Shown here: positions 41,554-62,385 of the stretch, piece by piece | How positions within the stretch are numbered: the stretch's first letter is position 1 | Layout: each line of letters starts with the position of its first letter | Origin: a virus | Taxonomy: Duplodnaviria; Caudoviricetes | Direction: 5' to 3' (one strand) | Length of the DNA stretch: 64,000 bases | Virus record (IMG/VR): IMGVR_UViG_3300029288_000131 | Coordinates: 1-64,000 of that record | Program-made: the position numbers and the translations under genes | The notes under the pieces: generated by a model | The model's database searches: none | What the model was told of the DNA's origin: nothing | What the model saw: only the letters and a program-made list of their open reading frames with translations

Positions 41554-43101
41554 ATGGCGCTTGCGGCCTGCGACTGGGAAATCCGAACCGACGGCGACGA
41601 CGCCAATGGCGGCGGCTTCGAGCGCGGCGCGCCTGCGGAGAACGATCGCTCCCAGCAGGCGGCGGCGTACTGGGCGGACAGTCTCAGTCACGGCGACGCG
41701 ACCGACAAGGTGGAGCCCGCGAACCACACGGTGGATTCGGCCGACGTTGGCAATCTCGTCTGCATCCAGGCCGAAACCGACTGGACGGCGGGCTGGTACG
41801 CCATTCGGAGCATCGACACCGCAGGCGGCAACAACTATTGGGTGCTCGACCGTGCAGCGCACGCGGGTACACCTGTCAGCAGCACGATGGCGAAGATGGG
41901 CGGGGCGCTGGCGAGTATCGGCGGGTTCGGCTACATCATGGCGATGGATGCGAACCACCGCGCATCCGGCTTGACGGATAGAACCAATGTGCATTGGCGT
42001 AGCGGCCTGTACGTGCTCGGCTCGGCCTCGTACAACGTGCCGGGCGGCGCGTACACCGAGGATGCGGACTGGTCGATCCACACGCACATTGCCGGCTATG
42101 ATTCCGCGAGCGGCCGGTATCCTGCGGCCGGCTGGGATTCGGCTCAACCTATCTTTCGCGCTGGCGCATACAATCCCGGCACAAATGGTATGCTATTTCG
42201 CAGCGGTTATGGCACCACACTATCATCGCATTGGCGCAACATCGAAGTGGATTGCAGTGATGGTGCGGGGAACAGAGTCGCCAGTACCGGAATCCGAGGG
42301 CAGGATGCGAGATACTTGCACACCGAACGATGCGTCGTCCACCACGCAAGTGCTACTGGTAATAACGGTGGATTTATGTATTTGCGTGCGACACGATGTC
42401 TCGCGCATGAGTGCGCGGGATACGGGTTTTACGCCTGCAATGCTGTCCACAGCGTTGCCCACCATAACGCCAACGGGTTTTGCGAGGGATATACCTCTTC
42501 GGGGCAGGTTGCGTGCCTTGCCTACGCGAATACAGGTGTAGGGTTCTGGCGGGCGTATGACTACCGAGGGTGCATCAGTTACGGGAACGGGGGAGCCGGC
42601 TTCTCCCAAGTGCCAGACAGGCAGGGCGTGTACGCGCATTGCGTATCGGCGGCGAACAACTACGGTTTCGTGCAGGCAGACGCGAGAAGCGCATATCACT
42701 CATGCTGGGCGTATGGCAACACGTCTGGCGTGCGTAGCGTGACGGCCGTTCCGCTAATCGACGAAATCGAATCCCTCACGGCCAACCCATTCCTCTGCCC
42801 CGTCAGTGCAACCTCGGTGTCTTACACCGCCGCGACGAAAACACTCACCAAGGCCGGCGCGTTCTCCGGCATCGACAACACGCACCCGACCGGCTACCGC
42901 ATCCGAATCACCGGCGGCACGAACATGACGCCGGGCACGTACTGGGTGGCGAGCAAGGTGAGCGATGATGCGGTTGTGCTTGCCACGGACGCGGGAACCG
43001 ATGATTCGGTCGATGCTGAGAGTGACTACGATTTCAACCTCAACAACGTCGAGGGCGGCGGCAAGACACTCCGCGAGGCGGGATTCGAGCTTGAGATATG
43101 A
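41554..43101 (+). CDS. second beta-helix-like virion protein (receptor-binding candidate)
   Basis: Repeated C.A..N...GF / C.SY.N...GF units. Confidence 0.7.
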   Translation: MALAACDWEIRTDGDDANGGGFERGAPAENDRSQQAAAYWADSLSHGDATDKVEPANHTVDSADVGNLVCIQAETDWTAGWYAIRSIDTAGGNNYWVLDRAAHAGTPVSSTMAKMGGALASIGGFGYIMAMDANHRASGLTDRTNVHWRSGLYVLGSASYNVPGGAYTEDADWSIHTHIAGYDSASGRYPAAGWDSAQPIFRAGAYNPGTNGMLFRSGYGTTLSSHWRNIEVDCSDGAGNRVASTGIRGQDARYLHTERCVVHHASATGNNGGFMYLRATRCLAHECAGYGFYACNAVHSVAHHNANGFCEGYTSSGQVACLAYANTGVGFWRAYDYRGCISYGNGGAGFSQVPDRQGVYAHCVSAANNYGFVQADARSAYHSCWAYGNTSGVRSVTAVPLIDEIESLTANPFLCPVSATSVSYTAATKTLTKAGAFSGIDNTHPTGYRIRITGGTNMTPGTYWVASKVSDDAVVLATDAGTDDSVDAESDYDFNLNNVEGGGKTLREAGFELEI

Positions 43102-44003
43102 GCGAACCCAACACTCTCTACCCGTTCGGCCCCTGGACGCCGCTTGACGACGCCGCTGAGCCGAACATGCTGCGCCCGTTCGGTGCTTGGCATGAGGTGG
43201 AAGAGGGGGATGACGAATCTAGTTCTTCGAGTTTTAGTTGTACTAGCTTGTCTTGCTCTACACAGAGTGGATATTCAAGTGCCAGCAGTCCCTCATCTAC
43301 GACTAGTTTGTCCTCTTCTAGCTGTACCAGTCTTTCCTCAGCTTCCTCAGCAAGCAGTGAATCTAGTCCTTCCTCGTTGAGCAGTCCATCTTCTTCTAGC
43401 TGTACCAGTCCTTCCTCTGCGAGCAGTGAATCTAGTCCTTCCTCATTGAGCAGTTTGTCTTGCTCAAGTTCGTCTAGCCAGTCCAGTCCATCTTATTCTA
43501 GTAGCACGAGCCCGTCCTCAGCAAGCAGTGAGTCTTGTTCAAGTCCATCCTCTACAAGTAGCCAGTCCAGTGAATCTTGTTCTAGCCCGTCATCAGCTAG
43601 CAGTGAGTCTAGCGAATCGTGTTCTAGTCCATCGTCAGAAAGCAACCCGTCCTCAGCAAGCAGTTCGTCCAGTTCATCTTCGGTCAGCAGTGAGTCTTGT
43701 TCAAGTCCTTCGTCTGAGAGTAGCCCGTCCTCGGCAAGCAGTGAGTCTTGTTCAAGTCCTTCGTCTGAGAGTAGCCCGTCCTCGGCAAGCAGTGAGTCTT
43801 GTTCAAGTCCTTCATCGGCTAGCAGTCCATCAAGTTCAAGTAGCATATCATCAATAAGCACGTCGTCGTTGAGCAGTTCTTGTAGTGCCGTCAGCTCGTC
43901 GAGTTCTTGCAGTTCTACAACCGTAGGTCCAGTGTTTTCTCCCAGGTGGGCAGAGGGCGTCAACAGATACATCGGCTTCGGGCACGGGATAGGAGTAGGA
44001 TGA
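43098..44003 (+). CDS. poly-Ser (mucin-like) virion protein 1
   Basis: EPN.L.PFG.W twice, GDDE, then ~235 aa Ser tract with interspersed C/P/E, short C-terminal GFGHGIGVG. Confidence 0.75.
   Translation: MSEPNTLYPFGPWTPLDDAAEPNMLRPFGAWHEVEEGDDESSSSSFSCTSLSCSTQSGYSSASSPSSTTSLSSSSCTSLSSASSASSESSPSSLSSPSSSSCTSPSSASSESSPSSLSSLSCSSSSSQSSPSYSSSTSPSSASSESCSSPSSTSSQSSESCSSPSSASSESSESCSSPSSESNPSSASSSSSSSSVSSESCSSPSSESSPSSASSESCSSPSSESSPSSASSESCSSPSSASSPSSSSSISSISTSSLSSSCSAVSSSSSCSSTTVGPVFSPRWAEGVNRYIGFGHGIGVG
43686..43813 (+). repeat. 51-bp coding tandem repeat (SSESCSSPSSESSPSSA)
   Basis: AGCAGTGAGTCTTGTTCAAGTCCTTC starts at 43686, 43737, 43788. Confidence 0.9.
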
Positions 44004-44004
44004 A

Positions 44005-45375
44005 ATGTACCTGAAAAACGACCCTGTTCCTGAGCCGATTAAAGCGAAGGTGATTCATGCTGGTACTGGCGAGCCGATCACGTCAGGTGTGGTTGTTTTT
44101 TACTTGCAAGGTTCAACGAGAACACCGGGTGCTGGTACACTGGAGATAGTTGGGGAGACGTGGAACTACACTCCAACGCAAGCCGAGACGAATTGTGATG
44201 AGTTTGCCATCGAGTTCTACCACGTCAATGCTGTAGGCAACGGTCCAATCGTCCAGGTCGTTCCGACGACCATGACACAATCAGCCGCTGCTGCCGTGTC
44301 GTCATTGGGGACGATTACGATCAGCAGAACGTGGGAGGTTGATGGCGTCCTGACAGACGTGACGTCTGCCAAACTGAGTGACCCGACTGGCACCTACGGA
44401 GTTAAGAGGGACGACACAAACGCTGTGGTGGTCGCTGACGCCGTGGATATGACGAGGGTGGGGACGGGGGTCTACCAATATACCTTTACAGAGCCCGCCT
44501 CAGGTTTAGCGTATACGGCGTATATCGAGTTCGTTTACGACGGAGCTTCTTACTACTTCGAGATCGACATCCAGGCTGAATCGGTAAGGATCGTTTCTGC
44601 AAGGGATGTGATGCTTGAGATGGGGATTTTGGACACGGCCTCGGCCACTGAAATTGCTTTGATCGAACGAGGAATTGCCAATGCCGAGGGAGCCGTCAAG
44701 AGGTTCTTGCGATACGACCCAAAGCACCGGCAAAGGACGGAGTTCTATCCACGAGCGAACTTCTCGTACAATCCCAGGGCGGCAGTTTGGGAGGTGTCGG
44801 AGAGCCATGCATATCTAAGAAGGATTGCAGAGTCGGCCAGCGATGAGCTGCAACTTCAACATCTACCGATTCGTAGCATCGATGCTCTTTACATCGATTA
44901 CGATGGACGGGGTGGGGCAAGAACAGGAGCGTTCGCTGCCGAGACGCTCAAGGTGGAGGGAAGCGATTACTGGCCCAACTATGACTTGCTTGACAGCGGG
45001 GGAAACAGGGTCTGTAGCGACGGGATACTGCGAAGCATGGGCTCTTGGCCATCTACCCCCGGCTGCGTGAAGGTGCAGTATACGGCGGGCTACAAATCGG
45101 CTGAATTGCAAGGGAACGATTCGATCATAGACGCTACACCTATTTGGCAAACCGTCTTGGAAGAATCGGCTCGACGGGCACGTAAGGCATTGGTGTGGGC
45201 CAAGCATATCAGGGCAGGACATCTTGCCGGGGTGATCACGAACGAAAGCCTCGGTGACTACAGCTACAGCATCGACGCTTCGATGGCTGCCAAGTTGTTT
45301 GGGGACACGAGAGAATTGTCAAGTGGATCAGTTTCACGACTGGAACCTTTTGTCAACTGGGGATTTGAACAATGA
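44005..45375 (+). CDS. head-tail connector (gp6/gp15-like) with two extra N-terminal domains
   Basis: IALIERGIANAEGAVKRFL, LQHLPIRSI, CVKVQYTAGY, ESLGDYSYS. Confidence 0.7.
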   Translation: MYLKNDPVPEPIKAKVIHAGTGEPITSGVVVFYLQGSTRTPGAGTLEIVGETWNYTPTQAETNCDEFAIEFYHVNAVGNGPIVQVVPTTMTQSAAAAVSSLGTITISRTWEVDGVLTDVTSAKLSDPTGTYGVKRDDTNAVVVADAVDMTRVGTGVYQYTFTEPASGLAYTAYIEFVYDGASYYFEIDIQAESVRIVSARDVMLEMGILDTASATEIALIERGIANAEGAVKRFLRYDPKHRQRTEFYPRANFSYNPRAAVWEVSESHAYLRRIAESASDELQLQHLPIRSIDALYIDYDGRGGARTGAFAAETLKVEGSDYWPNYDLLDSGGNRVCSDGILRSMGSWPSTPGCVKVQYTAGYKSAELQGNDSIIDATPIWQTVLEESARRARKALVWAKHIRAGHLAGVITNESLGDYSYSIDASMAAKLFGDTRELSSGSVSRLEPFVNWGFEQ

Positions 45376-45689
45376 CCATTTACGTTGATGTTGATGGAAC
45401 GCTTACGACCAGTGCTCGATCTGGCGGGGTGTTCAAGAGTGCTTCACTCAGGGAAGATGTAATAGAGAAGGTCAAGGAGTGGATCGCTGCTGGACATGAT
45501 GTGGTGCTTTGGTCCGACGACCGAAGGTATGCTGATAAAGTTGCTCGACGTTTGGGACTGGCTGTCGGAGCCGCTGTGAAGAAGCCCGACTTGATCGTGG
45601 ACGACAAGACGTTTCGCATCAAGCAACTGACCCGCAGATGCTTGGTGACGCCGGACCAGTTCCTTGAGATGGAAGTTGAGCAGAAATGA
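45372..45689 (+). CDS. HAD-superfamily phosphatase (capless)
   Basis: IYVDVDGTL (DxD), VVLWS, KPDLIVDD. Confidence 0.8.
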   Translation: MTIYVDVDGTLTTSARSGGVFKSASLREDVIEKVKEWIAAGHDVVLWSDDRRYADKVARRLGLAVGAAVKKPDLIVDDKTFRIKQLTRRCLVTPDQFLEMEVEQK

Positions 45690-46543
45690 TTGATCCTCTG
45701 CAGGTCGAACGCCGAGGTAAACCCATCGATCTAGAAGGGCTGTGGAATCCAAACCCAGCCTTTCTGGTCGGTGGGGGACCGTCTCTGAACGACTTGCCAT
45801 TGGAGCGTCTAAAGGATCGGGGAGTGGTTTCGTTGGCAATTAATCAGTCGGCAGCATGGGTTCCGGTCAAGGCATGGGTGTTTAGTGACACGCAGTGGAA
45901 GTTTCATTCGTCGTTGTTCATGGACCCTGCCGTTATGACGTTTGCTCCGATCCCGAAACTGAGAAGGCAGTTCCATCTCAAGACGGAGGAGGGTTTTCAC
46001 GATACGGGGATTCGACTGAACCAATGCCCGAACACCTACGGCTATTCGAGACTGACTTGCTTTGTGCCGGACGAGTTCTTTACGACGACACACGCTCACT
46101 GGGGACCAAGAAAACACCAGCCCGCTGACAAGCCGGAGCAGGGATGTCTATGCACAATGCTGTTGGGCATACGGTTGCTACACTACCTTGGAGTCCGTCG
46201 GATCTATTTGTTGGGAGTTGATAATAAGGGAAGGGATGGGAAGTGCTACGCATTCCCGGAGGGCAAGGGTGCTAGGACGAGACGCTACAAGTGGGAACGG
46301 CACATGCTCGAACGGCTTCAACCTCAGTTTGACAAGAGGGGGATGGAGCTGTATAACTGCAGCCCTGACAGCGATTGTCGTTTGTATCCGTTTCGTTCTT
46401 TTGATGAAGCGTTGAAGGATTGTAAAGGTTCGGTGGAGGACGACCCGCTAGACACGACTGGCTGGTACGACATGAGTTCCCAGCAGGAGCAGTGTCGGAA
46501 GAACCCCAAGATCGTTCCCGTCCATTATGGAGGTGCGAGATGA
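45686..46543 (+). CDS. DUF115 (Maf_flag10/MptE-like) Rossmann protein, putative glycosyltransferase
   Basis: AFLVGGGPSLN, LAINQS, FSD, LHYLGVRRIYLLGVD, LYNCS. Confidence 0.72.
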   Translation: MIDPLQVERRGKPIDLEGLWNPNPAFLVGGGPSLNDLPLERLKDRGVVSLAINQSAAWVPVKAWVFSDTQWKFHSSLFMDPAVMTFAPIPKLRRQFHLKTEEGFHDTGIRLNQCPNTYGYSRLTCFVPDEFFTTTHAHWGPRKHQPADKPEQGCLCTMLLGIRLLHYLGVRRIYLLGVDNKGRDGKCYAFPEGKGARTRRYKWERHMLERLQPQFDKRGMELYNCSPDSDCRLYPFRSFDEALKDCKGSVEDDPLDTTGWYDMSSQQEQCRKNPKIVPVHYGGAR

Positions 46544-46713
46544 TCGACAGAGACGAAGCAAAGGACATCGAACAGTGGGCCGAGGAGGAAGCAGAGGGAC
46601 TGGCGACACTGTGGCACTGCATTTGGTATCATTGCTTGGAGAGGGGTTTCGCAAAGGAAGAGGCGATGGAACTGCTAAAGACCTACATCATGGCGACAGA
46701 GGAGTTGGGGTGA
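46540..46713 (+). CDS. 57-aa hypothetical protein, similar to 22434-22610
   Basis: GGAGG RBS; LWHCIWYHCLERGFAKEEAMELLKTY. Confidence 0.65.
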   Translation: MIDRDEAKDIEQWAEEEAEGLATLWHCIWYHCLERGFAKEEAMELLKTYIMATEELG

Positions 46714-47486: not shown

Positions 47487-47857
47487 TGTCGTTGCTTGAA
47501 AATCTTCCACACCGTTGTACTATTCGCCGTCGGGTGAGATCCAAAGGCACGCTCGGTGGTAGTAAGGACAGCTTTACGGTTGAGCAGACGGGTGTTCACT
47601 GCTGGGAGCAGAAGGCTGGTGATTCCGAAATAACAGAGTTCAGCAAGCGGGGCATTCGTATCAGCAGGAAGGTCTACTTCGTAAACGATCCGGAGGTGAC
47701 GGAGCGTCACCAGATTTTGATAACGGAGAAGAGCGGAGTAGTGGACAGCGACCCGACGCCTTTGGACGTCAAGTCGACACCAAGACCCGATGCAGACGTG
47801 GGGTTTGGTTTGCTGTTTCGGGTGTTCGTAGATGAGTCTACTGGGGAGGAGAACTGA
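47486..47857 (+). CDS. head-closure/stopper protein (gp16/FII-like)
   Basis: HRCTIRR...GG, RKVYF, size and position. Confidence 0.6.
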   Translation: MSLLENLPHRCTIRRRVRSKGTLGGSKDSFTVEQTGVHCWEQKAGDSEITEFSKRGIRISRKVYFVNDPEVTERHQILITEKSGVVDSDPTPLDVKSTPRPDADVGFGLLFRVFVDESTGEEN

Positions 47858-48195: not shown

Positions 48196-48208
48196 AAGGA
48201 GAAGGACG

Positions 48209-48937: not shown

Positions 48938-50563
48938 ATGAACGCTCTCACAAAGGCGTTCGACAGTCAGCGGTCCCTGATAGCTACCGTTCGAGATGAT
49001 GCCGTGCGTCTGAAAGCGTCCGGCGTCTTGAGCGGACAAGTAGGATCGTCCATGCTTGGTGAGATGGGCAGCATGATGCAGAACCAAGCCAAGTATCAAT
49101 CCAAGTACGCTTTGTTTCGAGGGTGGATTTACTCGGCCGTTCATGCCATAGCAGATGCTGCGGCTGGGCAGCCGGTCAGCTTGGCTCGATTGAAGAAGGT
49201 CCCGAAGAACGGGGATGTTCCGAAGCGGTCGAAGGCTTATCAGTTGAACAAGATGCCCAACTCGATAAGGGCCAAGGCCATCCAGCATGAGATGGACATG
49301 CTGGAAGATCATCCTTTGGTTGCAACATTGGAATCGCCCAACCCGTTTCAGGATCGTTGTCACTTCACCTACACGTTTGTTGCCAATCTGGCATTGACGG
49401 GGTGGGCTTACGTGGTGAGGGACAAGACTAAGGATGGTAAGCATCAGTTCATCTGCCTGCCCACCACTTGGATCACCCCGAAACACGAGAAGGGACCGTT
49501 TTCAAAGTTCGTGGTTAGGAACCCCCAGAACCCGAACGTCAAGGGAGAAGAGTTAGATAGGTCTCAGGTGGCGTTTGCTCACCTGCCCAACCCGTCCGAT
49601 CCGTTGAGTGCCATGTCCCCTGCTGGTGCTCAAATCACCAGCATTAGAATTGACGACCACATCCAGACTTGCCAGGAGCAGTTCTTTTATAACGGAGTGT
49701 TCCCGTCTGTGATTATCACGATGGGAAAGAATCCTGATCCTGACATGCCCGGTGGGGGCAACCGTCCCATGCTGACCCCCGCCCAGAGAAGGCAGGTCAA
49801 CGCTGTCATTCGCAAGACGTGGGCGGGTGTTCATAACTACGGCAACCCTGCAATCATTGATGCCTCGATCGAGAGAATCGAACGGTTGGGAGCTACCCAG
49901 AACGAGATCGGATGGGAGAAGTCCGAGATGACCGTGCGGACTCGCATCCTGTCCAGTTATGGAGTACATCCCTTCATCCTCGGCGAGACGATGCCTGGAA
50001 GCTATGCCCAGGCTAGCATTGTTGAGGGTCGGTTCTATCGCAGAGTGAACGGCTACTTGGAGATGTTGTCGAACCTGATGACGAACTTCATCAGGCAGAT
50101 TGAGGATGAGGATAGTGAAGATTTGCTTGCTTGGTGGGAGAAGTTGGAGTCACGGGATCAGGGACTCTACTATCAAAACATGCGAGAGGCTCGGAAGACG
50201 GGTGACATCACGAAGAACGAGTACCGTGCTATCCTTGGGTTCCCTCCGGCAGAGGATGAGGAAGAAGAGGAGGCAGCTCCCATCGGGCAGAGCTTGTTCG
50301 GTGGGATCATTCAATTGATTGCTCAGATAGGGCAAGGCAACATTGACCCCACTCAAGGCGAAGCACTGCTGGTAGGACTCGGTGTGCCGAAGAAGGTGGC
50401 CGAAAAGGTGTCGGGCATCGGCATCAAGCGGGAGCAGCAAGTCCAGCAAGAGCAGGAAGTGGTCGAGGATGCTGTTGAGGAGCTGAAGAGAGCTTTGGTT
50501 GAGTTGAAGGTGTCACCGTCCGAATTGGCTAATCGGATCGAACGGGAGTGCTTGGTAGGATGA
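48938..50563 (+). CDS. portal protein (HK97-like)
   Basis: WIYSAVHAIA, LLESPNP-like TLESPNPFQ, NLALTGWAY, FFYNGVFPS, ILSSYGVHP, ITKNEYRAILGFPP. Confidence 0.9.
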   Translation: MNALTKAFDSQRSLIATVRDDAVRLKASGVLSGQVGSSMLGEMGSMMQNQAKYQSKYALFRGWIYSAVHAIADAAAGQPVSLARLKKVPKNGDVPKRSKAYQLNKMPNSIRAKAIQHEMDMLEDHPLVATLESPNPFQDRCHFTYTFVANLALTGWAYVVRDKTKDGKHQFICLPTTWITPKHEKGPFSKFVVRNPQNPNVKGEELDRSQVAFAHLPNPSDPLSAMSPAGAQITSIRIDDHIQTCQEQFFYNGVFPSVIITMGKNPDPDMPGGGNRPMLTPAQRRQVNAVIRKTWAGVHNYGNPAIIDASIERIERLGATQNEIGWEKSEMTVRTRILSSYGVHPFILGETMPGSYAQASIVEGRFYRRVNGYLEMLSNLMTNFIRQIEDEDSEDLLAWWEKLESRDQGLYYQNMREARKTGDITKNEYRAILGFPPAEDEEEEEAAPIGQSLFGGIIQLIAQIGQGNIDPTQGEALLVGLGVPKKVAEKVSGIGIKREQQVQQEQEVVEDAVEELKRALVELKVSPSELANRIERECLVG

Positions 50564-53367: not shown

Positions 53368-53608
53368 CAATGACTACCAGCAGGCATTTGCTGGAGACGA
53401 CGAGAGCTTGGCCCTGTTCCTCCAAAGCATAGCCAGGTTTGACCGTCAGTTCTGCGATGCTATGGCGTCTGGTGCCGACTTCACCATTCGTATAGAGGTA
53501 CATGGGAACAAAGGCAGGATGATTCACAGTCGGGTGCAATCGGACTGCTTTGAGCGGCCGAAGGAGGCTCCACGGGACATGACCAAGAGACGAAAGAATT
53601 ACGAATGA
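53333..53608 (+). CDS. hypothetical protein
   Basis: GGAG RBS, ATGA overlap with next gene. Confidence 0.6.
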   Translation: MEKPRASSSNHSNDYQQAFAGDDESLALFLQSIARFDRQFCDAMASGADFTIRIEVHGNKGRMIHSRVQSDCFERPKEAPRDMTKRRKNYE

Positions 53609-54435
53609 GTTTCTACTTGCCCCACCAGAATGCCGTTCATGTCCACATCGCTCATACGGGAGGGACGTGGGTAGGAACAGCTCTAAAAGTGATGGGCATC
53701 TTGAAACAGACCCGACATACGAAAACGTTCGGAGTATATGCACCACCGTGGATGGGACGGCCAAAGCACATCCCGATGAGATACATCTATTCCGAAGCTC
53801 TCGACGGGTACAACTTCTTCTTCTCGTTCGTTCGACATCCTTTGAGTTACTACGAGTCGATTTGGAACTATTACAGGCAGCATAGTAAAGAGGTGACTGC
53901 TGCTTGGATAAGCAACGGCCTGTGGGAGTCGGATCGATTTGTGACGAGGCACTTTCGTTCGACGTTCAACGAGTGGATAGAGGTGGTGCTTGAGAAGGAG
54001 CCTGGATTTGTCACCCGAGTATACGAGCAATTCCTTGGGATGGAGGGAGCCGAGACGTGTCAGTACATCGGCAGGATGGAAACGCTTCGGGAGGACTTTG
54101 CTCAGGTGATGTCTTTGTTGGGATTGGGCTGGAAGGTGGAGCAGTGCAAAGATGAGATAGAAAGATTGGGCATCGTAAGGCACAAGAAATCAGGGACAGG
54201 ACCACCGATTAAATGGGCTACCGATCTTCGGTTGGGGATGGAGAAAAGTGAGAGGCTTGCCATCGAGAGGTTCTACGGCCCCAAGACCTTGCACAAGCGT
54301 GCTTATGGGGTGTTAGGACGGGACGACATGGAGCCGTGGCAGCTTGAAAGGATGTTCCCGAATGGGGTTCCCGAGTGGGCGAGAAATCCGTTTGGAGCTA
54401 ATAGGGATTTTCGTTATAATGGGGTCGACGAGTAG
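53605..54435 (+). CDS. sulfotransferase family 2-like protein
   Basis: VHIAHTGGTWV (cf. HIPKTGG), FSFVRHPL, YIGRMETLREDF. Confidence 0.75.
   Translation: MSFYLPHQNAVHVHIAHTGGTWVGTALKVMGILKQTRHTKTFGVYAPPWMGRPKHIPMRYIYSEALDGYNFFFSFVRHPLSYYESIWNYYRQHSKEVTAAWISNGLWESDRFVTRHFRSTFNEWIEVVLEKEPGFVTRVYEQFLGMEGAETCQYIGRMETLREDFAQVMSLLGLGWKVEQCKDEIERLGIVRHKKSGTGPPIKWATDLRLGMEKSERLAIERFYGPKTLHKRAYGVLGRDDMEPWQLERMFPNGVPEWARNPFGANRDFRYNGVDE
54385..54424 (+). promoter_or_regulatory. sigma70-like phage promoter P3 (head-tail operon)
   Basis: AATCCGTTTGGAGCTA; TTGGAG 54392-54397, 17 nt, TATAAT 54415-54420. Confidence 0.75.
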
Positions 54436-54541: not shown

Positions 54542-55237
54542 ATGGCAAAGAATGTTACCTTCTATTTGGGACCGGCAAGTGGACTCCTTGCCACCCGTGT
54601 CTTGACGATCACTCGGATGAGGAGAGCAGGAGATGATTCAGCAATCACTCCTGCTTACAATGCCGATGCCGGTGCTGCTACAACCGTTGTGACGGTTCAG
54701 CTTGCCGACAATCAGATTTGGCAAGCACAGTTGGTTGATACGAATGCCACCGGAGAGGCAAGTGCCCCGGACGTTCTCAATTTCCATACGGGCAGCTTGC
54801 AGTTTCCGGGACCGAGGAGCCATGATAGGTTGCAGATCTTGTCGATGGAGGATCTGTCGTCCAGCTCATCCAGCTCGTCCAGCAGCATGTCGAGTTCGTC
54901 CTGGTCGAGCCAAAGCAGCGGATCGTCCGCCTCTTCCAGTTCTTCGAGTTCCAGCTTGGAGTACAGCTCGTCCAGTTCGTCCAGTTGCACAAGTGAGTCC
55001 AGTTCGTCCTGGTCGAGTCAGTCCAGTTCGTCCTGGTCGAGCCCGTCGAGTGCCAGTAGCCAGAGCACAAGCAGCAGCAGTTCCATTAGCACGTCCAGTT
55101 CAAGTCAGTCGAGTCATAGCTCGTCTAGCTGGTCAAGCAAAAGCAGCTCGTCTAGCTCCAGCAGCTCCAACAGCTCGTCTAGCTCCAGCAGCCAAAGCAC
55201 GAGCCTTTCCAGTTCGTCCTGGTCTAGCCAGCCTTGA
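54542..55237 (+). CDS. poly-Ser protein 2: ~105-aa beta domain + Ser tail
   Basis: First gene after P3; MEDL followed by ~125 aa Ser tract to the C-terminus. Confidence 0.75.
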   Translation: MAKNVTFYLGPASGLLATRVLTITRMRRAGDDSAITPAYNADAGAATTVVTVQLADNQIWQAQLVDTNATGEASAPDVLNFHTGSLQFPGPRSHDRLQILSMEDLSSSSSSSSSSMSSSSWSSQSSGSSASSSSSSSSLEYSSSSSSSCTSESSSSWSSQSSSSWSSPSSASSQSTSSSSSISTSSSSQSSHSSSSWSSKSSSSSSSSSNSSSSSSSQSTSLSSSSWSSQP

Positions 55238-55671: not shown

Positions 55672-55961
55672 TGTTCGTTGGATACGAGCAAATAGCTGCT
55701 GGTCCTGCCGTTCAGACAGCGGACGATTTGACGATTCCAGGCAACGCCACCGGCGTTCTCATCCAAGTGGATACGAACAACATTCGTTACACGATGGACG
55801 GTGCCACCGATCCGACAGCGGCTGGAATTGGTATGTTGTTTGTTGTGAACGAAGCTCCTCAGTTCTTTACGATTGACGACCTGTTGCGGATTCGATTCAT
55901 CCAAGTTGCCGCTGGCGTAGGCAACATGAATCTGCATTATACAGCAGGAAGAAACATATGA
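55668..55961 (+). CDS. small beta-rich structural protein
   Basis: IQVDTNNIRYTMDGATDPT...G, LRIRFI; GGAGG RBS. Confidence 0.65.
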   Translation: MMFVGYEQIAAGPAVQTADDLTIPGNATGVLIQVDTNNIRYTMDGATDPTAAGIGMLFVVNEAPQFFTIDDLLRIRFIQVAAGVGNMNLHYTAGRNI

Positions 55962-57916
55962 ACCAGCGTCAACTGCTCGAAGCAATACGAGCCCGGACCC
56001 AGAAGAAGTCACAGTTTGGTCACGGCATCCTGACTGCCGACCTCTATCTCAAAGGCATGTTGGAGGGGCTGGGATCGGACCTCTGTTATCAATTCGCCAG
56101 CCGGGGGCTGACCAGTTTCGACGACCTGATGAGAAAGGCTGCTCGGACGCTGGTCTACAGCAACCCCGAAATGAAGGTCGAAGAGAAGCTGACGGATGCT
56201 TACAGCAGCTTGCCTCGCGGGACGAAGCTGCCCAAGAACACGCTAATGGTGTTCAAGCATACGTTGACCAGCAGTGCCAAGGATCGAGACGGTGACACGC
56301 TTCACAGCGATGGGGCATCGGTCGATCCCAACATGCTGATGATTTGGCAGCACGTCCACACGATGCCCATCGGCAAGTTCATCGCCATTGCCGAGCAGAA
56401 CACCAAGCACCTGAAGACGTACAGTGCCATCGTCGACATCAACGACTTGAGCCACGACTCGGCTGTGATGGTCGACAACGGAATGGGACGCTTCAGCCAC
56501 GGGTTCCGAGCATTGGAGTTCGTTGAGACGAAGGGTGGACGGGAAGGTGGAGTGGGATTCGACATTCACAAGTTCGAGATCATGGAAGAGTCACTAGTTT
56601 CCGTTCCTGCCAACCCCGACGCTCAGACGGATGAAGTGATTGTTTCGTTGGTCGAACGTGGCAAGTTGACCAGTCCTCTGATGAAAGAATTCAGCAAGTC
56701 CATAAGGGAGCGGATGCCGTTGTCTGTTCCTGTCAAGCTGGATCTCAAAGTGACCGTCAATGGTCAGGAGGTGAAGGATGAGAACAAGTCAAGAAACGGA
56801 GAAGGAGCGGGAGAAAAGGGAAAAGGAACGACCAGCACACCAGCGAAAGCAAATGGAGATAACGAGGACGAAGAGGAAGGTGCCGACAAGAAAGTAGAAT
56901 GCCCCGAGTGCGGTGAGATGGTCAAGCCGGATGAAGATGGAGAATGTCCAGAGTGTGGAGCTAGCATGAAGGAAGAGAAGAAGGGAAAGAAGAACATTAG
57001 CCCGTCTTCGATCCATGCAGGCATGCTTAGTGATTCTTGGGAGTCCATCGAATCCCAACTTCGAGATTCGGTCAAGCATTATCTGATTTCAATGGGGCAC
57101 GTGATTGGAGATACTGATTGGGTTTGGTTGATGGGAACGTACAATGACTTTGCAATTGTTTGTTGTGAAAAAGGAGGCAATCGCGAATTTTATAAGATAG
57201 CGTGGCAATTGAAGGACGGCAAGCCTCAATTTGTAGGAGAGCCAAATCTCGTCGAGGTAAAGATCTCGACGGAGTTGATAGAAAGAGCCAAGCGGTTTCG
57301 TCCTGAGCATGGCAAGCCCTATCCGAACGAGCACGCTGCTCGGATGAACGACCCCGACAAGTATGGAAAGATTCGACGACAGAACGATAAGTTTGGGGAA
57401 GGTATCCACGCCATCTTTGGGGTGCTAGAGGATGGCAAGACAGAGGTGCAGGCCATTCGGTTCGATTCGTCCAAGTTCTCAGAAGAAGAGGCACGTGAAT
57501 GGCTCGAAGAGCATAAGTACAAGCCAGCCAAGTTTGAGCCAGCTAAGGAGGAGAAGAAGAGCGTCAAGCAGGGACGGGTTATCAGTCACTCGAACGAAGC
57601 CAAGATCAAAGACGCCAAGGAAGATGTGGACGAAGCTAGCAAGATGGACATTGCTCGTCCTGCCAAGGCGTTGCTCAAGTCAGCATCTCGTAGCCTCACC
57701 GAGGTGATCGACACGATTGGCAACGAGGGACCAGTCGGAGAAAAGGCAATGACTGTGGAGGATGCGATGGCCAAGGTGCTTGCGGAGGCCAATACCAAGC
57801 AACGCAAGAACATGGCCGACGCCCTGCGGGCAATTGATATGGTGGAGAAGGAAACAATTCGATGCCAAGCCAAGCGTCGATTGATTTTGCGAATGAACAC
57901 ATCACGGCGGTCGTGA
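55958..57916 (+). CDS. prohead protease (HK97-type) fused to Zn ribbon and further domains
   Basis: DRDGD, WQH...PIGK, FSHGF, EESLVSVPAN; CPECG..CPECG; PYPNEHAAR...FEPA domain. Confidence 0.85.
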   Translation: MNQRQLLEAIRARTQKKSQFGHGILTADLYLKGMLEGLGSDLCYQFASRGLTSFDDLMRKAARTLVYSNPEMKVEEKLTDAYSSLPRGTKLPKNTLMVFKHTLTSSAKDRDGDTLHSDGASVDPNMLMIWQHVHTMPIGKFIAIAEQNTKHLKTYSAIVDINDLSHDSAVMVDNGMGRFSHGFRALEFVETKGGREGGVGFDIHKFEIMEESLVSVPANPDAQTDEVIVSLVERGKLTSPLMKEFSKSIRERMPLSVPVKLDLKVTVNGQEVKDENKSRNGEGAGEKGKGTTSTPAKANGDNEDEEEGADKKVECPECGEMVKPDEDGECPECGASMKEEKKGKKNISPSSIHAGMLSDSWESIESQLRDSVKHYLISMGHVIGDTDWVWLMGTYNDFAIVCCEKGGNREFYKIAWQLKDGKPQFVGEPNLVEVKISTELIERAKRFRPEHGKPYPNEHAARMNDPDKYGKIRRQNDKFGEGIHAIFGVLEDGKTEVQAIRFDSSKFSEEEAREWLEEHKYKPAKFEPAKEEKKSVKQGRVISHSNEAKIKDAKEDVDEASKMDIARPAKALLKSASRSLTEVIDTIGNEGPVGEKAMTVEDAMAKVLAEANTKQRKNMADALRAIDMVEKETIRCQAKRRLILRMNTSRRS

Positions 57917-57956
57917 TGGTTTACCTCGTTTCCGTCTAACAGAAAGGGTAAAACCA

Positions 57957-59576
57957 ATGAAGATGACGGAAGCCTTTAAGAAGTGGCTTGTCGAGAACTG
58001 CGGCGTCAAGTCCGACGCGGCAGAAGACGAGCTGCGAGCGGCCGCCGGTAAGGCGTTTGCTGACGGCAAACTGACGGCCGAGAAGTACATGGAGCTGACC
58101 AAGGATGAAGACGACGATCTGACCAAGGAGTTCAAGCGGATGAACGACAACTTGGAGAAGGCCGTTGCAGCTCTGTCCACTCCTCCCGAAAAGAAGGAGG
58201 AGAAGAAAGAGGAGAAGAAGGAAGAGCCCACCGGCGAGAAGAAGATTGGGGACCTTCCCGACAGGAAGCAGCCGGCCCCGCCGACCGTGCTGGAAAAGAT
58301 GGTCGCTCGGCTCGGTGGCACTCCTATCGAACCAGAGGGTAAGACCATCGACGTCCGGGTCAAGGAAGCGGCCGAGATGTATACCGACACCAAGTCCGTT
58401 GCGGTCTTTCCGGCCAAGACGGCGAAGGGTCGGGCACATCCACGTGCTGGTCAGCCCATCATGGATTACGATGAGGGTGGCCGTGTGATCAACACGCCGA
58501 GTCAACGGGACAAGGCTGTGATCGGTGCCTTCTCCAAGTTCCTTTGTGCCAAGGCTCAGCGTGGTGGAAGTCGAACATTCGGTTTCCAGGCGATGAACCA
58601 GCACGACAAGGAACTGCTACTCTATGCAATGGAGAACATGGAGTGGGTCGGAGCGTCCGACGGCGGCAATTACGCCGACATCAACGGCCGTAAGTTGACC
58701 ACGATGGAAAAGCAAGCTCTGATCGACGACGCCGTGTCGGGCGGTTTGGAAGCGGCTCCCATCGTGTTTGACGACGACGTGATTCAGGCACCGCTGCTCA
58801 ACGGAGAGCTGTACCCGCACGTCAAGGTCGTTCCCCTGGATCGTGGACGTCGGGTTGAGGGTGTTGCCACTGGCACCGTCACCGCCGCGTGGGGCGGTGT
58901 TGACGACACGGCAGTTGCCCTGTTCAACACAGCAGCCTACGTCACGGCATTCGATACGACCATCTTTCGTTGGGAAGGCTCCATTCGTATCGGGTTGGAC
59001 TTCCTGTCCGACACGCCCATCGACTTCGGTGCTCACGTCACCGCCCAGTATGGCGAACGCCTGCTGGAAGACCTGGACGACGTGATTGCCACGGGCAACG
59101 GCACGACGCAGCCGACGGGCATCATGAATGCTGCGGGCACGACAGCCGTTGCTTTTGGTGGTGCCACCAGCCTTGGAGCTTACGAGCAGCTTCGCTTCGG
59201 CGTTGCAAAGCAGGAGCACAAGGGTGGGGTCGGTGCCAGTGCCGTGTTCTGTGGAACCGAGACCTCGTACATGAGGGCTCGGGCGTTGAACGTCGGTGCC
59301 ACCGATGCTCGTCGCATCATGGGGTACGACTACTCCAGCTACAACTGGATGGAACGTCCCTACAAGATCAACAACAGCCTGACCAACCGCCAGATCTTCT
59401 ACGCGATCATGGCTCGCTATCGCATGTATCGTCGGCGTGGGTTGACCATGCGAACGAGCACCGAGGGCGACACCCTGATCCGCCGGAACGAGATGCTGAT
59501 GGTTGCGATGGCCCGTTATGGTGGCCAGCTCGAGCGCGGAGCTTGTGCTGCCGTCACCACGACCGCCCCTGCGTAA
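57957..59576 (+). CDS. major capsid protein (HK97 fold)
   Basis: Coiled-coil N-terminus, GGLEAAP..F, GNGTTQPTGI, RYGG; strong codon bias; after protease. Confidence 0.88.
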   Translation: MKMTEAFKKWLVENCGVKSDAAEDELRAAAGKAFADGKLTAEKYMELTKDEDDDLTKEFKRMNDNLEKAVAALSTPPEKKEEKKEEKKEEPTGEKKIGDLPDRKQPAPPTVLEKMVARLGGTPIEPEGKTIDVRVKEAAEMYTDTKSVAVFPAKTAKGRAHPRAGQPIMDYDEGGRVINTPSQRDKAVIGAFSKFLCAKAQRGGSRTFGFQAMNQHDKELLLYAMENMEWVGASDGGNYADINGRKLTTMEKQALIDDAVSGGLEAAPIVFDDDVIQAPLLNGELYPHVKVVPLDRGRRVEGVATGTVTAAWGGVDDTAVALFNTAAYVTAFDTTIFRWEGSIRIGLDFLSDTPIDFGAHVTAQYGERLLEDLDDVIATGNGTTQPTGIMNAAGTTAVAFGGATSLGAYEQLRFGVAKQEHKGGVGASAVFCGTETSYMRARALNVGATDARRIMGYDYSSYNWMERPYKINNSLTNRQIFYAIMARYRMYRRRGLTMRTSTEGDTLIRRNEMLMVAMARYGGQLERGACAAVTTTAPA

Positions 59577-59583
59577 CAGCCCT

Positions 59584-59654
59584 GCGACCGTGTCGGTCGC
59601 TACACCCGTGGCTGGGGGCTTACGTCCTTCGGCCCTCAGCCACGGCATTTCTTT
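59584..59654 (+). terminator. double hairpin after capsid gene
   Basis: GCGACCG/CGGTCGC; CCGTGGCTGGGGG/CCCTCAGCCACGG; then CATTTCTTT. Confidence 0.65.
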
Positions 59655-59686
59655 AGAAGGACATCTAGAAAGAAGGACAAACAGAC

Positions 59687-60280
59687 ATGCCTACAGCAGA
59701 AGAAAAAACAAGAGTTGCTTCATTCGGCGTCGAGATCGACACGCCCCGCAACGGGGATGTCGTGTTGAACAGCATTCCTGGATGTCGTTTGCGTGGAGCC
59801 ATTGCGGCGTCGAAGCCGGGCTTCGCAAAACGTGATGGGGATACGCCTACCATCCCTCGGGATCAGGCAACCCATCTTGGAGCACTTCCTCCCATTCCCG
59901 GTATGCAATTGCACGTCAATCCTGCGAAGTGTGCGTACACGATCATCGATCCTCTTTACGAGGACGATGAATTGTGTCGTAGGATTCAATCGGCCATGCG
60001 TGCCAATGAGCGTCCCATCAGTGGAGAGATTCGTGGTGTTCCTCCGCAAAAGGGAGAGCTCGACGTTCACCGGATGAAGACCCTCTGCCGTGAGTTGCAT
60101 CAATTGGTCGAGACCAGCTATGCCAAGGTGGTCAAGGGAGTGCTTCCTTCAATGGAAGAGATTGAGGATCTGCCTGGCAAGTTTTTGTTGAATCCCGGCA
60201 GCGTGATCCCCAATTCGCAGCCGTTGTTCGAAGAGGACATGGAAGCTTGGGTGGCCAATCTTCATAAGGGAGGCGGGTGA
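59687..60280 (+). CDS. hypothetical structural-region protein
   Basis: AAGGA RBS, between capsid and tail genes. Confidence 0.7.
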   Translation: MPTAEEKTRVASFGVEIDTPRNGDVVLNSIPGCRLRGAIAASKPGFAKRDGDTPTIPRDQATHLGALPPIPGMQLHVNPAKCAYTIIDPLYEDDELCRRIQSAMRANERPISGEIRGVPPQKGELDVHRMKTLCRELHQLVETSYAKVVKGVLPSMEEIEDLPGKFLLNPGSVIPNSQPLFEEDMEAWVANLHKGGG

Positions 60281-60281
60281 A

Positions 60282-60740
60282 ATGCCCACGTTCTCCCCGG
60301 CAGTAGAGGCTGCTCGGCAGCGTAGGGTTGGTGCTGCCGAGCAGAGGCTGGTGAGGATTGAGTGGTTCATTGAGAATGTAACCGACAAGGTAAAGTTGTC
60401 CCTGAAGCAACGGGTAAGCCTTGCCACTTCGATGTTGCTGGACAGGATGATCAGGAACGTCAGCGTTCCGGTAACGAAGGTTCCAGGAACAAAGACGGGA
60501 AGGATAATCGTAACAGAGAGAAGTAAGCCTGGAGAGTTTCCCCGTGCAGACACGACCCAGCTCATGAAGACGTTGTTCAAAGAGGTTGTGGTGGATCAAG
60601 ACGGAGCGGCGGGATACGTTGGCACTCCCCTGGATTACGGTTTGTTCTTGGAGATCAAAATGAACCGTAGCTTTATGGTAAGGACGCTGAACGAAGAACG
60701 TGGAATGATTACAAGAATCTTGACGGGACCAATTCGATGA
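60282..60740 (+). CDS. HK97 gp10-like tail completion protein
   Basis: SKPGEFPRADTTQL, VGTPLDYGLFLE, RSFM. Confidence 0.75.
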   Translation: MPTFSPAVEAARQRRVGAAEQRLVRIEWFIENVTDKVKLSLKQRVSLATSMLLDRMIRNVSVPVTKVPGTKTGRIIVTERSKPGEFPRADTTQLMKTLFKEVVVDQDGAAGYVGTPLDYGLFLEIKMNRSFMVRTLNEERGMITRILTGPIR

Positions 60741-61237
60741 GCGTTGCTGGTGCTTCAGTTTCCAAGGCTTTGGTTGCTGCATGGGACGATGCAGGTCTCG
60801 ATGCCAAGTTCAAGGCTTTGTGGGCTGGCGAAGTGTCAGCAGACGAATTCATTGTGCTACACGATCAAGAGGCATCCCCCCAGCAACCGTGGCCCTATTG
60901 CGTGCTGGAGCAGATCAGTGCTTCTACGACCAGTCGTATGTCGGGCGGGGTGAGCCACCTCCGAGAAATACGGGATGTTGACATCCGGTTTCATGTTCAT
61001 GCCAGCGAGGTTTCTGGGGACTCAAGGACTGCCAAGGAAATTGCAGCCTACCTTTGCGAAGAGATCATGAAGGTCTTTGGTGGACACCCGACGGAAGCCC
61101 CGTCAGCGTTGACGTTGGACCACGGCAAGTTCCTGATAGCACAGTACCAGAGTGATTACGGTGTGAGGACTGGCGATGAGACGTATGAGTGGCTGGTCCA
61201 TTACATCTTCCGAATAGACGTTCCCGTAGCCGTGTGA
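60737..61237 (+). CDS. tail terminator (gp17-like)
   Basis: PWPYCV, DVDIRFHV, AKEIA, size and position before tail tube. Confidence 0.65.
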   Translation: MSVAGASVSKALVAAWDDAGLDAKFKALWAGEVSADEFIVLHDQEASPQQPWPYCVLEQISASTTSRMSGGVSHLREIRDVDIRFHVHASEVSGDSRTAKEIAAYLCEEIMKVFGGHPTEAPSALTLDHGKFLIAQYQSDYGVRTGDETYEWLVHYIFRIDVPVAV

Positions 61238-61245
61238 GGTGAGAA

Positions 61246-62385
61246 ATGCCCCGCAGCTTGTCGGCAATCAAACTGAACGTGAAGCTCTCAGCAACGCTCC
61301 GTAATCTGCTTGACGATGCTGTGTATGCTTCTGTCAACCATCCGGGCTTAAACTACAGCCCCACGTTGGACGACGGCATAGGCGACAATCAGGCGAACCG
61401 TAGCTGGCAGTCCTTGAGCCGTGCCCTGAACTGGAATGCTAGTGAGACTTTGGATCTCTACGACTTGGGAGCTGTTGACATCGGTGCCGGTGCTGGTCGG
61501 GACGGGTTGGGACAGCCCATTGCGTTTGAGGATGTGGTAGCCATAGCCATTGTCAATGATAACGCCGTGGATGAGACTGGTCAGTTGGAAATCATACCCG
61601 CCGTTGCCAATGGATGGACCCCCATCGGAGAGCATACGGTAGCAAATGGTGGAGCGCTACGTGGTCAAGGCATTCTGCTCAAGGCTCAAATTGCCGAGGA
61701 TGGATTTGATGTTGAAGACGGGGTTAGTCATCAGATCACGTTGACGGCTCGGGAGGGCAATGTCGAATACAGCATCTACTTGCTGACCAGACATGACGAT
61801 GAGGAATCGACAAGCTCTTCTAGCTGGTCGAGTCACAATTCCAGCAGTTCTTCCAGCATCAGTACGAGTTCGATCTCGACCAGCAGCCCGTCTAGTTCGT
61901 CTTGGTCGAGTCACAGTTCTAGCAGCTTGTCAAGTGTGTCCAGTCCGAGTTCCTCGTCTAGCTCTTCGAGCAGCAGTCCCAGCAGTTCTTCGAGTAGCAG
62001 TTCTTCATCTAGCATCAGCACCAGTTCTTCTAGCCCGAGCAGCATTAGCACGAGTTCGGCTAGTTCTAGTTCATCGAGCATCAGCACAAGCAGCATCAGT
62101 ACGAGTGCCCATGAGAGTTGGTTCATCTGGTGGCACAGCGGGTCTAGCACGTGGATCATCAACCATTCGGTTGGAGAGTTTCTTGAAGGAGGCTGGTCCT
62201 TAAACACTCCAAGCATTGAAGGAATCTATGGCCCAGGCGGTTCTTATAGCGGCTACCCGAAGGTGGATGCAAGTGGCGCTGACTATGAAGTAACGTACGA
62301 TACCGAAGTGCCCGTTCCAGATTGTCGAGGTACTTACGTTCTGGCTGGCACTTACGGTGGAGAGAATTACTACGTGAGGAGCTGA
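61246..62385 (+). CDS. poly-Ser protein 3: N-terminal beta domain, Ser tract, aromatic C-terminal domain
   Basis: HDDEE then ~100 aa Ser tract; C-terminal WFIWW..TWII..GW..EGIY. Confidence 0.75.
   Translation: MPRSLSAIKLNVKLSATLRNLLDDAVYASVNHPGLNYSPTLDDGIGDNQANRSWQSLSRALNWNASETLDLYDLGAVDIGAGAGRDGLGQPIAFEDVVAIAIVNDNAVDETGQLEIIPAVANGWTPIGEHTVANGGALRGQGILLKAQIAEDGFDVEDGVSHQITLTAREGNVEYSIYLLTRHDDEESTSSSSWSSHNSSSSSSISTSSISTSSPSSSSWSSHSSSSLSSVSSPSSSSSSSSSSPSSSSSSSSSSSISTSSSSPSSISTSSASSSSSSISTSSISTSAHESWFIWWHSGSSTWIINHSVGEFLEGGWSLNTPSIEGIYGPGGSYSGYPKVDASGADYEVTYDTEVPVPDCRGTYVLAGTYGGENYYVRS

Follow-up and report, generated by a model that had tools for sequence, protein, structure and literature searches.

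Why would a tailed phage attach long runs of serine to proteins encoded among its particle genes, and does it carry the enzymes to modify them? The question is raised by a 64,000-nucleotide stretch of DNA (the window), bases 1 to 64000 of the 89,174-bp virus record IMGVR_UViG_3300029288_000131 (CheckV completeness, 94%), in which three open reading frames (ORFs) on the + strand, starting at 43098, 54542, and 61246 and designated here P1, P2, and P3, encode poly-Ser tracts of about 110 to 250 amino acids (aa), each located after an acidic motif. An initial annotation of this DNA had described these ORFs, had argued for selection on Ser rather than slippage alone, and had proposed that the tracts are modified by enzymes encoded between the structural genes. 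The ORFs proved to be real and selection on Ser was borne out. O-glycosylation of the Ser tails by a glycan-type gene cluster of the phage itself is the best reading of the locus, which we infer from gene content and co-occurrence and to which we give somewhat better than even chances (coordinates of all features are listed in Table 1).

The phage is a member of a large lineage of uncultured tailed phages with genomes of about 82 to 95 kb. Scanning IMG/VR with an alignment of the P3 N-terminal domain yielded 132 relatives, many on 82- to 95-kb contigs; 80 of the loci were kept, gene order was compared in 29 large loci, and the presence or absence of genes was assessed by tblastn in four complete relatives. 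A scan of IMG/VR with the P3 N-domain as a single protein gave no close relative, and a protein search with the same domain returned 31 homologues (40 to 66% identity), each one read ending in RHDD-E followed by poly-Ser. In all 78 complete P3 homologues from IMG/VR loci, the motif RHDD[END]E was followed by a Ser tract of 26 to 224 aa, which ended no more than 5 residues from the stop codon in 76 of the 78, and all 41 complete P2 homologues from IMG/VR loci had LSMED[LE] followed by a Ser-rich tail of 44 to 206 aa. Tails consisted of 74 to 75% Ser and 5 to 6% Thr, with Ala, Val, Glu, Leu, Ile, and Gln at about 1.5 to 3% each (38 and 71 distinct tails). Two of the three window tracts, those of P2 and P3, are conserved family features.

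Some observations would suit the alternative that the tracts are not translated as Ser, being either slippage-prone simple DNA or the reverse side or wrong frame of the actual gene. Other frames were often open (in P3 tails, the +1 frame in 32/71 and the -1 frame in 32/71), translation of the antisense frame gives a peptide rich in L, D, and E, and P1 contains a perfect repeat and has no homologues. However, none of the alternative frames was open in all tails, and the Ser frame continued that of the conserved N-domain in 119/119 homologues, with position and frame of the tract kept in 78/78 (P3) and 41/41 (P2). Ser codons in the tails were 51% AGY and 49% TCN, a balance that a slipping triplet cannot yield and that argues for selection on the amino acid. 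All six Ser codons were present in each of the three window tracts, in which TRF detected only short or local repeats, except one perfect 51-bp repeat (2.5 copies) in P1. In addition, the + strand carries nearly all genes, the GC skew is strongly positive throughout, and the start and stop codons of the Ser frames are coupled to neighboring genes. A scan of the whole 89-kb genome recovered the three tracts and a fourth + strand tract outside the window (genome 68239-68454); "Ser" stretches on the minus strand were acidic coding runs read on the opposite strand. With the frame conserved and the codons balanced, both slippage and a wrong frame were rejected, and we regard the alternative as very improbable.

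The proteins that carry the conserved tails have small N-terminal domains with predicted folds. The model of the P2 N-domain is a seven-strand beta-sandwich superposable on FN3 (Z, 8.2 to 8.8; root mean square deviation, 2.1 to 2.5 over 75 to 86 residues in VIA; 2.2 over 77 to 79 residues at a Z of 8.8), the top 20 VIA rows all being FN3 domains or FN3-derived monobodies. In Foldseek, TM scores to FN3 monobodies were 0.6 to 0.7, at E values of only about 0.01 to 0.05, and a PDB sequence-profile search with the P2 N-domain gave nothing significant. By its model, then, the domain is FN3-like. P2 homologues were present in all 29 large loci and in 4/4 complete relatives; no folded domain stands behind the P2 tract, which sets it apart from an inter-domain linker. 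The modeled jelly roll of P3 matched Bacillus Ena spore-appendage subunits (Z, 8.1), small plant and satellite virus coats, and the phage cement or turret proteins of KHP40 (Z, 6.6), Pam1 (7eel_H), and HFTV1, and in BFVD it resembled small uncharacterised proteins of uncultured phages; for a predicted structure, Z values of this size indicate a common fold, not a function. P3 had no Pfam or PHROG match, and no tube protein was among the fold matches listed. Phage decoration and cement proteins make use of folds of these two kinds, FN3-like and jelly-roll, and we read P2 and P3 as accessory, probably surface-exposed proteins of the head-tail module, with presence in the virion judged from gene position. 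The labels neck, head, and tail, given to P1, P2, and P3 in the initial annotation, hold insofar as all three lie among particle-module genes, but "neck" was without support and P3, a predicted jelly roll, is probably not a tube. P3 as tail tube protein was set aside on that fold and because the adjoining gene at 62411 is the better tube candidate. The domain that follows the tract in P3 of this genome had no tblastn match in the 80 loci or the four complete relatives and, as far as sequence comparison reaches, appears unique to this genome; a relationship to the Cys-rich post-linker modules of tail-tip proteins was considered and dropped, the similarity being at a meaningless level.

A conserved cluster of glycan-type genes is located at genome 69.5-78.7 kb, on the same strand and directly after the tail-tip genes. 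The genes for the Maf-like, 269-aa, FkbM, GT8-like, o75466, and GT-A-like proteins were found in 4/4 complete relatives, as was at least one Methyltransf_24 gene (the paralogues cross-match). A PDB sequence-profile search with o70826 gave nothing significant. Seen together with this whole-genome cluster, the weak enzyme calls within the window gain weight. The Maf-like family comprised 2,473 cluster representatives at an E value of <=1e-3. Residues G70, P71, S72, G222, D224, and Y233 were invariant in 41 sequences, and Rossmann-type GxGPS and downstream G(V/I)D motifs were present in both copies of this phage (VGGGPSL and LLGVDNK in the 45686 product; CGGPSAN and LIGVDFRM...GYAF in the 69515 product). 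Against the PDB, the family profile aligned with the Cst sialyltransferase 9c08 at GVDF...YAF (E, 0.32) and with the MptE-type kinase 8sd5 at GGPS (E, 1.6). Ten divergent members scored at most 27.8 bits against PF01973, 6/10 of them matching positions 136 to 170 (E, 2.6e-6 to 2e-3), and PF01973 occurred in 22/30 named Atlas look-alikes of the Maf-like protein. By these sequence comparisons, the family is likely to be remotely related to the Maf/MptE-like superfamily. In metagenomic proteins of 600 to 1334 aa (P0233, P0255, P0202, P0245, and P0235), the Maf-like domain was found naturally fused to Methyltransf_24, Methyltransf_11/25, or GT8-like domains; the fusion partners are separate genes in the cluster of this phage, which argues for one pathway. 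A further cluster gene encodes a 194-aa protein (genome 77445-78029; L081 13445-14029) that resembles enoyl-CoA hydratase/carnitine racemase (phrog_1128, 1.5e-8) and is absent from the four relatives.

Because tails and cluster are both invariant within the lineage, the test for an association was moved to divergent Maf-like genes of other phages. Divergent Maf-like proteins were aligned, and the alignment, scanned against IMG/VR, gave 80 neighborhoods (+/-10 kb), 70 of which lacked the structural markers of this family; 119 random IMG/VR loci, chosen by an arbitrary 14-mer, served as the control, and a Ser tract was defined as at least 22 Ser in 40 aa. Single-protein IMG/VR scans with three multi-domain Maf-like relatives found nothing. 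At least one Ser tract was present in 47/70 marker-free neighborhoods (81 tracts in 1.05 Mb), compared to 6 tracts in 1.09 Mb of control loci, an approximately 14-fold enrichment near Maf-like genes over random viral DNA among loci that are not independent of each other. Tracts at Maf-like loci reached 525, 578, 833, and 1,443 aa (L129, L127, L146, and L134, respectively). The two longest (L134 1019-5347, 1,443 aa at 80% Ser; L146 1610-4108, 833 aa) are on unrelated contigs of 124 kb and 264 kb, each with a Maf-like gene.

Under the glycosylation reading, the Ser tails would be acceptor arrays, O-glycosylated late in infection by enzymes from the conserved cluster downstream of the tail genes and from extra paralogues scattered among the head genes. 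A Maf/GT42-like enzyme, possibly fed by a KdsB-like synthetase for cytidine monophosphate (CMP)-ulosonic acid, would build the glycan together with two or three GT-A-like transferases, and FkbM/Methyltransf_24 methyltransferases and sulfotransferase-like enzymes would tailor it, the outcome being a hydrated, probably acidic, methylated glycan brush on the particle surface. It is from the genes that we infer that the proteins are in the virion and are modified, what sugar is attached, and what the brush would do (shield the particle, prevent aggregation, or adhere). A more specific form, which we hold possible but put clearly below even chances, is a true viral glycocalyx, a mucin-like layer made by a large and widespread group of uncultured tailed phages: the accessory FN3-like and jelly-roll proteins would present poly-Ser tails of differing length, a phage-encoded Maf-like, CMP-ulosonic-acid-dependent pathway would load them with an O-glycan that is acidic, methylated, and perhaps sulfated, the acidic motif would act as a start or recognition signal, and the system would have no described phage counterpart.

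A number of observations weigh against glycosylation. Tails and cluster never separate within the lineage, and their co-occurrence there is without independent weight. Upon collapse at 50% identity of the Maf-like protein, nine non-family clusters remained, with Ser tracts in 4/9, including both multi-member clusters (34/44 and 8/14), and no tract in 5/9; in the largest positive cluster, the neighbor is S/G-rich with a Hint domain and not pure poly-Ser. The check on co-occurrence of poly-Ser and DUF115-like genes proposed in the initial annotation, run here on IMG/VR, thus gave a strong enrichment but a positive result in only 4/9 de-replicated clusters: the association is real but not universal. 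The PF01973 cut-off was never reached by the Maf-like family (11 to 15 bits in six-frame searches of five genomes). Among the four complete relatives, the KdsB-like gene was present in only two, the radical SAM gene in three, a sulfotransferase homologue in three, and the HAD-like gene in none. The major capsid protein had no match in INPHARED, which offered no cultured relative. The glycan cluster could, moreover, be directed at the host envelope. Finally, P3 of this window has folded domains on both sides of its tract, in the manner of an inter-domain linker, and the lineage's tail-tip proteins likewise have Ser tracts, preceded by an acidic motif, that link folded Cys-rich domains, a role that requires no modification.

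These last observations would be accommodated if the Ser tracts were unmodified, disordered, hydrophilic tails or linkers (entropic bristles or flexible tethers) and the cluster served elsewhere, e.g., in remodeling of the host envelope. The predicted local distance difference test (pLDDT) score around 30 across the P3 Ser tract predicts disorder, tail lengths of P2 and P3 varied freely and were uncorrelated (rho, 0.19, upon which a coupling of the two lengths was dropped), and Ser tracts were missing near the Maf-like genes of the five negative clusters. However, there is nothing to tether in 76/78 P3 and 41/41 P2 homologues, in which the tract reaches to 5 residues or less from the stop codon; the cluster is kept in 4/4 relatives on the same strand directly behind the tail genes; and the enrichment beside Maf-like genes of other phages and the fusions to methyltransferase and GT8-like domains fit a dedicated glycan pathway. 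Unmodified tails are, in our estimate, unlikely, if not markedly so. As a separate observation on this largest cluster, of 44 high-GC contigs, the Maf-like gene of the locus at L170 9866-12240 overlaps the start of a downstream 504-aa protein with two S/G-rich low-complexity arms around a Hint/intein-like core, and the locus has a methyltransferase-like ORF upstream and an HsdM-like gene downstream.

All four enzyme ORFs named in the initial annotation for the window (a DUF115 protein, a HAD phosphatase, a radical SAM enzyme, and a sulfotransferase-like protein) exist, but their family matches were mostly below curated cut-offs and individually weak. The HAD-like protein has a canonical N-terminal DVDGT motif I. 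The 45686 protein matched PF01973 at an E value of 0.004 (17.4 bits; cut-off, 34.6), and its gene is an additional paralogue of the conserved Maf-like gene at genome 69515-70459, with 41% identity. The radical SAM protein contains a CxxxCxxC motif (CKLKCEHC, aa 76 to 83), scored 23.3 bits against a Pfam cut-off of 29.5 and 22.1 against a cut-off of 22 for Fer4_12, and had MoaA/viperin-type N-terminal matches to many radical SAM families in NCBIfam. The sulfotransferase-like protein has the motifs HTGGTW and FVRHPLSYYES, and its gene is an extra paralogue of the Sulfotransfer_2 gene at genome 78011-78736. Interleaving of modifying enzymes with structural genes was thus retained in part: a glycan-type set is conserved, but its conserved copies are in the cluster beyond the window, and the HAD gene is missing from relatives. 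The sulfotransferase-like gene directly upstream of P2, the radical SAM and HAD-like genes between connector genes, and the two sulfotransferase paralogues in the genome are what would be expected if head-gene enzymes modified the tails mainly in a non-glycan manner, by Ser O-sulfation, phosphorylation, or a radical-SAM-dependent change. This we consider improbable: the HAD-like gene is missing from all four relatives and the sulfotransferase and radical SAM genes from one each, the best sulfotransferase matches are to carbohydrate families (Gal-3-O-sulfotransferase and Sulfotransfer_2), and the invariant core of the cluster consists of transferase and methyltransferase genes.

P1 stands apart from P2 and P3. 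It consists nearly entirely of a Ser/Pro/Glu/Cys-rich tract with short unique ends and 13 Cys, its start forms an ATGA overlap with the upstream gene, and 1 nt separates it from the next gene. Neither the whole protein nor its ends had a homologue in the four complete relatives or the 80 loci, and by this comparison P1 appears to be lineage-specific. Its assignment as a neck protein was rejected, P1 being absent from the four complete relatives and following two beta-helix genes. The perfect tandem repeat in its tract (43686-43813; 51 bp, 2.5 copies, 100% identical) encodes SSESCSSPSSESSPSSA units, and the identity of the copies indicates a very recent expansion. Between their terminase and adaptor genes, where P1 lies in this genome, relatives have further Ser-rich ORFs, e.g., one of 676 aa, in which a folded N-domain precedes a tract of 423 aa, and another of 792 aa that is nearly all Ser; homology of P1 to these ORFs could not be shown. 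Tail-tip homologues in relatives contain one or two Ser linkers between Cys-rich modules (G001 41855-43183; G005 26559-30614, 1351 aa). Because the P2 and P3 tails, the Ser-rich ORFs of relatives, and the tail-tip linkers all use Ser tracts, poly-Ser can be seen to serve the particle-module proteins of this lineage generally as a building block, both as tail and as linker. The extreme in relatives of this lineage was a tract of 515 aa at 83% Ser (L013/L017/L018 15165-16709). A full-text literature search found no description of poly-Ser phage particle proteins or of conserved accessory particle proteins that have long homopolymeric Ser tails and occur together with a Maf-like cluster.

The genes around the tracts form a module in which the order MuF, P2, protease, capsid, connectors, P3, putative tube, chaperone-sized genes, tape measure, and tail-tip was kept in the 29 large loci. 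The 62411 gene is likely to encode the tail tube, on the basis of its position, size, and conservation and of an Atlas lead: the protein was 62 to 81% identical across 44 relatives, the gene precedes two chaperone-sized genes and then the tape measure gene, and Phage_tail_2 occurred in 14% of the members of its ESM Atlas look-alike cluster (score, 0.96). PF06199 (Phage_tail_2) was undetected in five genomes, and a PDB profile search with the 62411 protein gave nothing significant. The 50548-51927 gene, which in the head module separates the portal gene from that for MuF, encodes a eukaryotic-type topoisomerase IB catalytic core, with weak homologues at the same place in 3/4 complete relatives. 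The two beta-helix proteins had no homologue in the four complete relatives; situated between the terminase region and P1 (38812-43101), the pair is a possible swappable spike or depolymerase cassette. A scan of contigs from cellular genomes found only three short contigs from metagenome-assembled genomes, assigned to Bacteroidales, Cyanobacteria, and Pirellulaceae, i.e., three phyla, and mis-binned, so that no host call is possible. GCC-rich repeats of 9, 12, and 21 bp (GCCGCCGACGCC...) are common to both ends of the record (window 1-114; genome 89,060-89,174) and form a Gly/Ala-rich ORF on the minus strand. A repetitive Gly-rich gene is probably where the assembly broke, in which case the record is likely to be circularly permuted or incomplete at that point.

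Table 1. Features of the Ser-tract locus and of the glycan-type cluster; coordinates are those of the window unless given as genome coordinates
Feature	Coordinates	Strand	Basis or remark
Terminase large subunit (weak)	gene start 33855		E 0.005
Beta-helix-type protein	38812-40785	+	Pel9A-like beta helix 1.2e-7
Beta-helix-type protein	41554-43101	+	Repetitive G-x-G-F/N-N-G-G-F pattern
P1, 301 aa, 154 Ser	43098-44003	+	Translation; tract aa ~41-286, nt ~43218-43955, after EEGDDE
Head-tail adaptor-like, 456 aa	44005-45375	+	phrog_442 1e-7; kept in 4/4 relatives
Minimal HAD-like phosphatase, 105 aa	45372-45689	+	Pfam HAD_SAK_2 E 0.003; phrog_1238 7e-8
Maf/sialyltransferase-like (MptE-like/DUF115), 285 aa	45686-46543	+	phrog_4603 "alpha-2,3-sialyltransferase" 4e-7
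Radical SAM protein, 319 aa	46527-47486	+	Pfam Radical_SAM 8e-5, Fer4_12 2e-4
Portal	48938-50563	+	Pfam Phage_portal 1.8e-25
Topoisomerase IB domain protein, 459 aa	50548-51927		Pfam 2.8e-23
MuF-like	gene start 52100		3.9e-11
Sulfotransferase-like, 276 aa, adjoins P2 upstream	53605-54435	+	phrog_3347 (Gal-3-O-sulfotransferase) 5e-5
P2, 231 aa, 101 Ser	54542-55237	+	Tract aa 106 to stop, after SMEDL
P2 N-terminal domain, aa 1-105, ends in conserved ILSMEDL	54542-54856	+	AlphaFold pLDDT 90.4
P2 poly-Ser tail to stop codon	54857-55237	+	41/41 complete homologues with tail at same place
Prohead protease-containing protein	55958-57916	+	Pfam Peptidase_S78 6.8e-4; phrog_80 1.3e-9
HK97-type major capsid protein	57957-59576	+	Phage_capsid 2.3e-14
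Tail-completion-like, directly upstream of P3	60737-61237	+	Pfam Tail_completion_gp17 E 3.8e-4, below cut-off; all 29 large loci
P3, 379 aa, 97 Ser	61246-62385	+	Tract aa ~187-296 (~110 aa) after RHDDEE
P3 N-terminal domain, aa 1-186, predicted eight-stranded jelly roll ending RHDDEE	61246-61803	+	pLDDT mostly 73-97 over aa 51-180
P3 poly-Ser tract	61804-62133	+	pLDDT ~27-38
P3 C-terminal ~85-aa domain after tract	62134-62385	+	Low model confidence
Putative tail tube, 142 aa	62411-62839	+	Most conserved gene of module
Tape measure, just past window	genome 64149		Pfam TMP_3 2e-18
Fourth Ser-tract protein, tail-tip region	genome 67273-68646 (L081 3273-4646)	+	N-domain, MEEEETSSS, ~65-aa Ser linker, Cys-rich C-terminal module
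Maf-like protein, 314 aa	genome 69515-70459		phrog_4603 1e-7
Conserved 269-aa protein, glycan cluster			DTD motif
FkbM methyltransferase, glycan cluster			Pfam 2.6e-17
GT8-like protein, glycan cluster			Pfam 0.003; GlyE 5gvv E 0.17; DAD motif; weak assignment
Three Methyltransf_24 proteins, glycan cluster			1e-12 to 3e-17
KdsB-like cytidylyltransferase, glycan cluster			Pfam CTP_transf_3 4.9e-22; NCBIfam KdsB subfamily 1.6e-44, below cut-off
GT-A-like protein o76726, glycan cluster			Family profile matches teichoic-acid glycosyltransferase TarP 6h1j E 2.7e-4
Sulfotransfer_2 protein	genome 78011-78736		Pfam 4e-5, 24.3 bits, passes cut-off of 22

Glycosylation of phage particles is so far known from a few mycobacteriophages, at short C-terminal sites of capsid and tube proteins. 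If the tails described here carry glycans, a widespread lineage, and apparently several unrelated ones too, would make a mucin-like brush with enzymes of its own, which would change the view of phage surface chemistry with respect to how phages adsorb to particles and mucus, stay stable as colloids, and evade recognition by hosts or grazers. The Ser tail and the Maf-like transferase would then also be a compact enzyme-plus-acceptor pair usable in protein glycoengineering. Should the tails be unmodified, it would still call for an explanation that two particle proteins have a disordered tail which is strictly conserved but variable in length.

Several known systems resemble parts of this locus. 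Immunoglobulin (Ig)-like and FN3 decoration domains sit on phage particles, as in T4 Hoc, the C-domain of lambda gpV, and SPP1 gp17.1*, and the predicted FN3-like sandwich of P2, encoded in the head module, is similar in kind; P2 differs in that its one domain stands alone and carries a poly-Ser tail, and no sequence relationship to Hoc or gpV was found. Polyserine linkers join the domains of secreted carbohydrate-active enzymes (Saccharophagus/Microbulbifer and Cytophaga), and P3 of this window and the lineage's tail-tip proteins similarly connect folded domains by Ser runs, whereas most tracts described here are terminal tails, conserved on particular phage proteins and found beside a glycan cluster. 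Serine-rich repeat glycoproteins of Gram-positive bacteria (Fap1, GspB, and PsrP) have long Ser-dominated regions that are heavily O-glycosylated by GT8/GT4 enzymes and form a surface brush; the GT8-like protein of the cluster matched the PsrP-modifying GlyE at a level that was not significant, and the phage tracts differ in being near-homopolymeric instead of S-[AVT] dipeptides and in being set on a virus particle. Maf enzymes O-glycosylate Ser/Thr of flagellin, and Maf and Cst use CMP-ulosonic acid donors. Likeness to Maf and the GT42 enzyme Cst is found here in the GxGPS and G(V/I)DF...Y(A/S)F motifs, the gene for a KdsB-type CMP-sugar synthetase in the genome, and the Ser-rich candidate acceptors. 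Unlike Maf, the phage Maf-like family is without detectable flanking Maf N- and C-terminal domains and has an N-terminal Cys cluster instead, and its candidate acceptor is a homopolymeric Ser tail of a phage protein and not the surface Ser/Thr of folded flagellin.

The closest setting is that of the mycobacteriophages, whose virion glycosylation has reportedly been treated by Freeman et al. (2023, Cell Host Microbe 31:1216). According to two reports, phage glycosyltransferases of Che8, Corndog, and Myrna glycosylate the C termini of capsid and tail tube subunits, and the virion glycans are proposed to shield the particle (PMC12619734, PMC10877033). In the present phage, GT-type genes likewise lie next to or within the structural operon (Maf-like, GT-A-like, and GT8-like, with a Maf-like paralogue between the connector genes). 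However, the mycobacteriophage substrates are the major capsid and tube proteins, whereas here the capsid (57957) and the putative tube (62411) are without a Ser/Thr tail, and the tails, of 26 to 224 aa, are on putative accessory proteins with predicted FN3-like and jelly-roll domains. The enzyme set differs as well, and comprises Maf/GT42-like and KdsB-like proteins, several methyltransferases, and a sulfotransferase.

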